Assembly (NCBI GenBank): GCA_964016885.1
Contig: OZ024754.1
Location: forward strand, 14,446,001-14,510,000
Length of the DNA stretch: 64,000 nt
Direction: 5' to 3'
Source: Eledone cirrhosa
Lineage: Eukaryota
Shown here: positions 43,104-44,134 of the stretch, one piece after another
How the letters are laid out: each line of letters starts with the position of its first letter
Position numbering within the stretch: position 1 is the first letter of the stretch
Translations under genes and position numbers: made by a program
The notes under the pieces: generated by a model
What the model was told of the DNA's origin: nothing
Seen by the model: the letters and a program-made list of their open reading frames with translations, nothing else
Databases searched by the model: none

Positions 43104-43431
43104 ATATATATAAACAACTATCTGGTTGTGGAACCAACCAACCAACCAGAAATTTATAGGTTTGTAAATTTGTAGATTTATAAATTTATAAATATATAAT
43201 AAATTGAAGTGAAAGCAACTGGTGCGTGTGTTTCTTATTGGCAACATGACCCTCCCAAAGTATATATATATATATATATATATATATATATATATATATA
43301 TATATATATATATATATATATATATATATATATATATATATATATATATATATATATATAATCAAGGTTTAGCAAATAATGAAAAAGTTTCAAAATAAAT
43401 TTTAAAAAATTGACTTTACCTACTATAGTTA

Positions 43432-43513
43432 CCTTTACCGAATCGGTTTCGAATCTCAAAAATAAACGGAGACCATACGGCCTTCGTTGCAAAGAAAGAT
43501 TCTCGTCAGAAGG
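43432..43513 (-). ncRNA. Type I hammerhead ribozyme, all three stems well formed
   Basis: cctt CTGACGA gaatct..agattc GAAA ccg-att-cgg TA aagg. Confidence 0.85.
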
Positions 43514-43913
43514 TTCTTTTCATTCGAAGAATATAAAATTCTTGAATTTAAATTACGAACTAGCGCTATCCAAAACTGTTCCCGAGATGAGAGTAAATAA
43601 AGTGGAATCAATTTTTTCAAGGGCCGAAGTAAAGATAGAGGCAGAGGGAGGTAGGTCAATCGGCTACCACTATCACTAGCAGCAGTCGGAGCGACCAAAT
43701 TTTTTCTCAACATAGAGGAGATAGTAATAATAGGATATGTGTTCCTACACGCACAAGGCGCTAAGGGACACTTGTATTGTCCAACCATATGCCAATGTGG
43801 TTCAATGGCAGGTTAATAAATTAACGAGCCAGAACATATATAATCAAGGTTTAGCAAATAATGAAACAGTTTCAAAATAAATTTTTAAAAATTGACTTTA
43901 CCTACTATAGTTA

Positions 43914-43995
43914 CCTTTACCGAATCGGTTTCGAATCTCAAAAATAAACGGAGACCATACGGCCTTCGTTGCAAAGAAAGATTCTCGTCAGAAAG
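43914..43995 (-). ncRNA. Type I hammerhead ribozyme (second copy)
   Basis: cttt CTGACGA gaatct..agattc GAAA ccgattcgg TA aagg. Confidence 0.85.
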
Positions 43996-44134
43996 TTCTT
44001 TTCATTCGAAGAATATAAAATTCTTGAATTTAAATTACGAACTAGCGCTATCCAAAACTGTTCCCGAGATGAGAGTATATATATATATAGTGACGAAACA
44101 TAAGTCAATTGCATGAACTCATAATCCTTTATTT

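Follow-up and report, generated by a model that had tools for sequence, protein, structure and literature searches.

A non-coding 482-nt unit with a hammerhead motif in the Eledone cirrhosa genome, probably a non-autonomous derivative of a PLE 3' end

Non-LTR retrozymes have been described as tandem repeats of 150-450 bp that carry type I hammerheads and whose RNA is expressed in linear and circular form (PMC7229834, Cervera and de la Pena 2020). An origin of animal retrozymes from the ends of Penelope-like elements (PLEs) has already been proposed, with units of 51-972 bp, and 24 of the 57 retrozyme families reported from Xenopus match 22 elements, 21 of them PLEs, at PLE termini (Li, Clavereau and Pollet 2026, bioRxiv 10.64898/2026.07.22.740005). 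The PLEs themselves are documented to form partial tandems and tails, to target TA and to give rise to non-autonomous derivatives with pLTRs (PMC8557442, Craig et al.). PLE hammerheads combine a helix II of 7-8 bp, a helix I of 4-5 bp, a palindromic helix III and a G10.1-C11.1 pair; low cleavage was measured for these motifs, and circles were proposed as the templates of PLE tandems (PMC4209133, Cervera and de la Pena). For PAc, the one PLE examined biochemically, RT begins beyond the pLTR junction, ribozyme mutants insert normally, and no RNA-seq reads end at the cleavage site (PMC11167929, Frangieh et al.).

To compare a candidate locus with these systems we analysed a 64-kb window of AT-rich animal-type DNA, dense in microsatellites. 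At the locus a repeated 482-nt unit, non-coding and with a single hammerhead motif in each copy, is present as a head-to-tail 1.5-mer. Two direct repeats on the minus strand, repeat A (43836-44077) and repeat B (43354-43595), align over 242 nt without gaps, with 3 mismatches (1.2%) and an offset of 482 nt. The edge of this alignment is set by a mismatch at 44078/43596, and a wider, equally gapless alignment (43836-44081 against 43354-43599) extends to 246 nt with 4 mismatches. The 242 nt include a 7-nt TA end; without it, they correspond to the direct repeats of about 235 bp reported in an earlier, sequence-only reading of this DNA. Repeat A is the upstream, pseudo-LTR-like copy, 5'-truncated inside a REQFWI-coding stretch and ending 3' in the 7-nt TA relic; repeat B, the downstream copy, comprises the REQFWI-coding stretch, a hammerhead and an AT-rich 3' end of 75 nt. 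pLTRs commonly include the end of the ORF. The repeats are separated by a 240-nt spacer (43596-43835, minus strand), likely what decay has left of the N-terminal part of a GIY-YIG endonuclease domain, with motif pieces spread over two frames and with several stops and frameshifts. At the junction (43829-43850, minus strand), which other copies of the family share, the spacer start adjoins the TA relic and the 3' end of the repeat.

The (TA)n flanks noted earlier are a (TA)50 microsatellite at the 3' end (43261-43360), the likely insertion target, and a (TA)7 at the 5' end (44076-44089), which doubles as the 3' flank of a neighbouring element. Both being TA runs, no target-site duplication, which in retrozymes exceeds 4 bp when present, can be read in them. 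Applied to 43200-44500 with parameters other than those of Li et al., TRF reported (TA)50 as the only tandem repeat. The earlier statement that the locus has no intact ORF holds in that no PLE gene is intact, but a 118-codon stop-free frame, without any database match, runs through 43459-43812. No RT gene is present in the 240-nt spacer of the locus, which accordingly lacks the ORF with RT and GIY-YIG endonuclease that defines an autonomous EN+ PLE. It does have the partial tandem of PLEs, forming pLTRs with hammerheads inside a microsatellite, and it lacks the 30-40-bp tail beyond the junction seen in a share of PLE copies.

Complete hammerheads on the minus strand, with sites 482 nt apart, had been proposed from the letters alone and are present as described. 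Hammerhead A (43913-43996) has CUGACGA at 43991, a GUA site with H17 at 43918 and a G-U pair in stem I at 43994; hammerhead B (43431-43514) has CUGACGA at 43509, a GUA site with H17 at 43436, an entirely Watson-Crick stem I and a near-palindromic stem III. In both motifs stem I has 5 bp, stem II has 7 bp, opens with a G-C pair and closes a further hairpin, GAAA is present, and stem III has 4 bp with a 3-nt loop, of which the previously reported 3-bp stem III is a shorter reading. Both therefore possess the type I core (CUGANGA, GAAA, NUH) with its three helices in type I order, and with 7, 5 and 4 bp in helices II, I and III, a G10.1-C11.1 pair and a palindromic helix III they conform to the PLE type. 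Between positions 9 and 10.1 the motifs do not have the extra base. The self-duplex of stem III is predicted at -14.3 kcal/mol, and a base at 43441, missing in 291 of 655 raw reads from another sample (X13), leaves a perfect stem III palindrome when removed.

The strict geometry occurs twice in the window and was absent from 100 of 100 local shuffles, and a looser descriptor finds 9 motifs in the 64 kb against a shuffle mean of 0.02. A TA run is reached 48-75 nt after the site at 7 of the 8 hammerhead ends measured in the window (5 of 6 besides this locus). These two observations indicate that retroelement ends with a hammerhead are nothing unusual in this genome. Rfam gave no match for the window at gathering score, and its 49 weak matches include no hammerhead; since the other 7 motifs of the window were missed as well, the Rfam models evidently do not cover these variants. 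The exact hammerhead pattern had no match among metagenome, viral and prokaryote genome contigs.

As in animal non-LTR retrozymes, the unit is non-coding, a few hundred nt long and below 50% GC (37% in the predicted 482-nt monomer, 43436-43917 on the minus strand, between the two predicted cleavage sites), has one type I hammerhead per unit arranged head-to-tail, and belongs to a multi-copy family; the proposed PLE origin and PLE-driven mobility are likewise shared. In contrast to those retrozymes, the locus holds only 1.5 units, its PLE-type ribozyme has a long, extended stem II where the canonical one is short, and a likely endonuclease fossil fills most of the 482 nt. The length of the unit exceeds the 150-450 bp of Cervera and de la Pena and falls within the 51-972 bp of Li et al. 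The latter define retrozymes by a TRF-detectable tandem of at least two consecutive hammerhead-bearing units, which this locus does not contain, and we therefore file it as a non-autonomous PLE derivative that resembles a retrozyme in its workings, and not as a retrozyme proper.

With PLEs whose endonuclease is C-terminal (Neptune type, a clade assignment made here by motif likeness only), the locus shares the partial tandem with a 5'-truncated upstream copy, a hammerhead directly following the endonuclease end in each repeat, a palindromic stem III, insertion into (TA)n and possibly a tail past the junction (PMC4209133, PMC8557442, PMC11167929). It differs from them in having no RT and no intact ORF, and in that its repeats lie 482 nt apart, compared with about 3 kb. 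Chlamydomonas MRC1 is a further parallel, being short, non-coding, similar to the 3' end of autonomous families and found with pLTRs and head-to-tail copies; derivatives of the MRC1 type stem from Chlamys elements, most of them without canonical hammerheads, whereas the complete motif is kept here (PMC8557442). The suggestion that the locus is intermediate between a PLE 3' end and a retrozyme agrees with its anatomy, which lies in between, and with its shared junction, but the idea itself is already in print (10.64898/2026.07.22.740005; PMC4209133). Within the available literature joining retrozymes and GIY-YIG, no unit made of an endonuclease fossil is described, and preprint supplements could hold such cases. 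The locus is a real feature of an ordinary class and does not constitute a new one.

We evaluated the distribution of the family by aligning four of 15 listed public runs to 43361-44420 at 80% identity. These comprised contigs (X1), contigs from another sample (X4), raw restriction-library reads from a third sample (X13) and contigs from a related organism (X5). Matches, in totals that include the neighbouring element, numbered 2704 contigs in X1, 64 contigs in X4, 5718 reads in X13 and 5 contigs in X5, and spanned all identity bands from 99% and above down to under 90%. Diverged relatives of the unit are numerous within the same species. All 30 bins of the stretch were covered in X1 and X13, while the five X5 contigs lie on repeat sequence, with the spacer interior and the junction uncovered. 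Per bin, the summed X1 depth over the unit ranged from 4,600 to 154,000, compared with 7.7-17 in the 8 listed long contigs, depth here not being equivalent to copy number.

A search for other copies sharing a junction near 43835-43845 had been proposed as a check, with a junction unique to this locus as the refuting outcome. Diverged copies do share it, so that the junction is not unique and this refutation fails. Contigs of the same species run across it. Record 13 of X4 crosses it (43781-43914) without gaps at 84% identity, with 21 differences and more than 31 letters on each side; among the listed pieces the junction is crossed by four (X1 record 2 and X4 records 11-13), and the 31-letter rule is satisfied by one of these. 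Records 10 (43496-43769), 11 (43713-43854) and 12 (43738-43861) of X4 overlap over the spacer and together span 43496-43861, which indicates that other copies are also without an RT gene there; among the contigs listed none spans the whole unit, and such tiling could mix subfamilies. Subfamilies do exist, as records 11 and 13 diverge from the spacer at 43713 and 43781. Summed X1 depth is similar in the bins at 43793-43864 (154,000 and 100,000) and at the end of repeat B (138,000), which suggests that most repeat ends continue into the spacer start; because the aligned stretch began at 43361, TA-ending reads also fall on repeat A and inflate the depth at 43843-43900. In X1 the depth peaks at 43793-43828 and drops thirty-fold by 43720, as PLE tails would give, and X4 is nearly flat there. 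Two X1 contigs cross the junction as a 43847-to-43371 joint (side 40). This joint appears to go back along the unit and was considered as circle evidence, and was rejected as such, being a DNA contig that crosses the junction and switches to the better-matching repeat. Read or loose ends in X13 at 43408, 43540/1, 43822, 44107-44112 and 44274 were likewise rejected as element boundaries, since each of these positions is an AATT or CATG site and the library is restriction-based.

The recurring junction and the RT-free spacer of other copies argue for a repeated 482-nt unit and against a one-off truncation. In the latter case a single insertion of an autonomous PLE would have left two adjacent 5'-truncated cDNAs as a partial tandem with no family of its own. 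Partial tandems of this kind are the normal form of PLE insertion (PMC8557442), a TA relic lies at the junction, and PLE-type 3' ends are frequent in the window. The presence of the junction in diverged copies and in another sample nevertheless largely refutes such an event, and a coding template would not give several frameshifts in 240 nt alongside a repeat difference of 1.2%; we consider this origin highly improbable.

Differences between the repeats bear on the template of the insertion. At 43867 repeat A departs from 298 of 303 X13 reads, and at 43994, in stem I, hundreds of reads align to repeat B and very few to A, so the differences of repeat A are probably private and arose after insertion. 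Both repeats have T at 43542/44024, where C accounts for 92% of X1 depth at 43542, and both retain the extra loop III base that is missing in the 291 X13 reads mentioned above. These shared states point to one template or one subfamily, and they are equally compatible with a circle and with tandem RNA. The single locus is most likely a dead insertion.

A third possibility is that the unit spread at the DNA level, by unequal crossing-over or by carriage in another mobile element, with its hammerheads as passive relics. Local tandem amplification by unequal crossover after insertion of a PLE end is discussed by Li et al. (10.64898/2026.07.22.740005), and numerous sequence variants surround the ribozyme. 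Against this, the locus is a 5'-truncated 1.5-mer whose TA boundary lies 48-75 nt beyond the cleavage site, which is also the case for 5 of the 6 other measured hammerhead ends, and the flanking elements are unlinked to the unit (TA loose ends at 44076), which makes spread of this kind improbable.

The element flanking the locus upstream (44090-44257 and on to at least 44420, minus strand) lies outside the 482-nt unit, is about 170 nt long and is very abundant. It carries a minimal hammerhead (CUGAUGA at 44185, AUA site, H17 at 44140) of another family, in the same orientation and 222 nt upstream of hammerhead A, which the sequence-only reading had missed. Other copies of the 44090-44257 element show TA loose ends on both sides, at 44076 and 44257, and its summed X1 depth (220,000-480,000) is the highest of 43361-44420. 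In the copy present here the stem III palindrome is broken by a near-private change at 44147, and a rarer, longer form reaches further upstream and includes a PNGLN-coding stretch at 44389. As a signal, the PNGLN motif performed no better than shuffles (44 of 150) and was discarded. Relatives occur at 54991 (-), 55226 (+) and 29738 (+). The element looks like a SINE-like PLE end of very high copy number.

Several further elements were found in the window. The 3' part of a PLE ORF at 45290-46270 (minus strand) encodes a C-terminal GIY-YIG (Pfam E 0.002, below the cut-off), a CxCX5C linker and CxxC and CxH motifs, which fit the description of the Hydra clade (PMC8557442); this ORF has one in-frame stop near 45851 and starts at a TA run. 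On the strand opposite to the 482-nt unit, a complete hammerhead motif at 43059-43102 (plus strand; CUGAAGA at 43064, CUA site) is its own minimum-energy fold and is enclosed by inverted repeats (42946-43260; 35 bp, terminal) with an internal palindrome at 42980-43038. Pieces of this structure, which is either MITE-like or an inverted pair of retroelements, are found again at 5870-6059 and 54428-54528. Two near-identical hammerhead motifs lie back to back on opposite strands at 38249-38482 (CUGA at 38299 on the minus and 38432 on the plus strand) with a palindromic spacer between them, as seen in inverted copies of PLEs; the same family type occurs at 5171 (-) and a related motif at 3541 (-). 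A hammerhead-like motif with a GUC site at 39765-39798 (minus strand) has stems I and II of 4 bp and no TA run within the 85 nt that follow. At 47660-48199 (plus strand) is a fragment of the C-terminus of a non-LTR retrotransposon ORF (Pfam DUF6451, E 0.002), which from its motifs we take to be RTE-like.

The origin of the spacer was evaluated at the protein level. It begins with a Cys codon at the junction, and its pieces in two frames resemble what we take to be the LLTC, YVGQ, EH and EKI motifs of PLE endonucleases; following these pieces, the repeat carries REQFWI and LN. Searches with the remnant against protein databases gave no match (Pfam on three frames, homologue searches, 1.84 billion representatives, Atlas and PDB sequences). 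An endonuclease profile was built from 102 loci scanned by motif in metagenomes, 60 of which had a long enough upstream frame and 47 of which, being distinct, were kept; the four members tested all match Pfam GIY-YIG. When only the portion not used for selecting the endonucleases was scored, the REQFWI-anchored score was reached by 1-6 of 300 shuffles at frameshift penalties of -2/-3 bits and by 11-106 of 300 at -4/-5, and the local score by 3-5 of 150 shuffles at -3 bits and by 14-46 of 150 at -5/-7. A first profile run had given 12.4 bits against a null mean of 12.8. The 47-sequence profile places the LLTC and YVGQ pieces on the expected columns with at least 6 frameshifts, and a 3-sequence profile gives a different alignment with at least 4 frameshifts plus stops or gaps. 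The full-profile score (reached by 0-1 of 150 shuffles) was rejected as evidence, because the profile set had been chosen on that C-terminal motif.

These results qualify the earlier proposal that REQFWI..LN is a decayed GIY-YIG C-terminus: the motif fits, but the upstream spacer falls in register only at cheap frameshift penalties. Spacer and repeat start together likely represent a whole, badly frameshifted GIY-YIG endonuclease domain, a weakly supported assignment. At least 4 frameshifts in the endonuclease alignment, compared with 1.2% divergence between the repeats, suggest that the template was already non-coding. If the endonuclease origin is right, the decay would be far older than the repeat divergence, and the unit would have spread without coding.

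The predicted folding of the two motifs differs. For the 84-nt core, the minimum-energy structure of B is the hammerhead, and for A the hammerhead costs 1.4 kcal/mol more than the minimum; across 20 fragment choices each, the cost of the hammerhead is 0.0-2.8 kcal/mol for B and 0.7-5.8 kcal/mol for A. The earlier description of both as well paired is accurate for the motif itself but not for the fold in context, since in 116-nt fragments neither hammerhead is at minimum energy (z -0.7 and -0.5). In a 718-nt precursor the cost over the minimum-energy fold is 3.3 kcal/mol for B alone, 7.6 for A alone, 10.6 for both and 10.9 for the double-hammerhead form. The predicted 482-nt circle folds at -107.5 kcal/mol with 56% of its bases paired (z -2.2; as low in 1 of 60 shuffles), and the active hammerhead fold within it costs 4.2 kcal/mol. 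Given these fold costs, self-cleavage during transcription is plausible, for B more than for A, and a 482-nt circular RNA from the locus is possible.

Such a circle would be central to a true non-LTR retrozyme, in which tandem RNA is cut at each hammerhead, the monomer is ligated (RtcB-type) to an abundant circle, and rolling reverse transcription yields the 1.5-mer. Consistent with this are the two complete motifs in register, the low cost of hammerhead B in the core and in all 20 fragment choices, the stability of the circle relative to shuffles, and the near-identical repeats with a common minority allele, which fit one template. Stem III, at 3-4 bp, is also stronger than in most PLE ribozymes, and units of 170-400 nt in coral, mussel and axolotl behave in this way (PMC7229834). 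Weighing against it are the presence of 1.5 units only, with TRF reporting just the TA run, the distance of hammerhead A from its best local fold, the cost of having both hammerheads active in the precursor or of the double form, and the modest pairing of the circle. Only 1 of 9 predicted Xenopus dimers was cleaved in vitro (10.64898/2026.07.22.740005), and PLE-type motifs cleave weakly (PMC4209133). On balance we regard a true retrozyme as unlikely. Equally doubtful is a more far-reaching scenario, a retrozyme family consisting of an entire fossil PLE endonuclease domain and a ribozyme, which a single ancient truncation into a TA run would have fixed and which would spread via abundant 482-nt circular RNAs from double or dimeric hammerhead cleavage, with most insertions beginning beyond the junction in the manner of the PLE tail mechanism.

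These data lead us to favour, as the probable explanation, a non-autonomous derivative of a PLE 3' end that is copied in trans into TA microsatellites, the locus containing 1.5 head-to-tail copies of it. We propose that an old, 5'-truncated PLE copy, consisting of the endonuclease-coding end and the 3' UTR, inserted behind another 3' end of the same PLE; this insertion would have fixed the junction and created a short tandem transcribable across it. RNA crossing the junction would then be bound by the RT/endonuclease of an autonomous C-terminal-endonuclease PLE, which may nick AT-rich DNA and carry reverse transcription beyond one unit, so that a truncated unit comes to stand in front of a full one. 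No autonomous PLE partner was found in the 64-kb window. T runs of 4-5 occur within the unit and presumably make read-through by RNA polymerase III unlikely.

Given that the cDNA covers both cleavage sites, its template would be either an uncleaved tandem transcript or a ligated circle. We lean towards the uncleaved transcript, with some confidence, because of the RT start past the junction, the normal insertion of ribozyme mutants and the lack of RNA-seq reads ending at the cleavage site (PMC11167929). Cleavage by the ribozyme is predicted, either on its own or as a dimer via its palindromic stem III, and 482-nt monomers and circles could arise as a by-product or as an alternative template.

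The case for a PLE origin of animal retrozymes has so far been built on co-occurrence and on the similarity of pLTRs, and PLE tandems may form by either of two routes, from a circle or from uncleaved tandem RNA. The value of the present family lies in its high copy number, in a stem III stronger than usual and in the fact that it still shows its excision point from the PLE, making the 482-nt unit a convenient test case for telling these routes apart.
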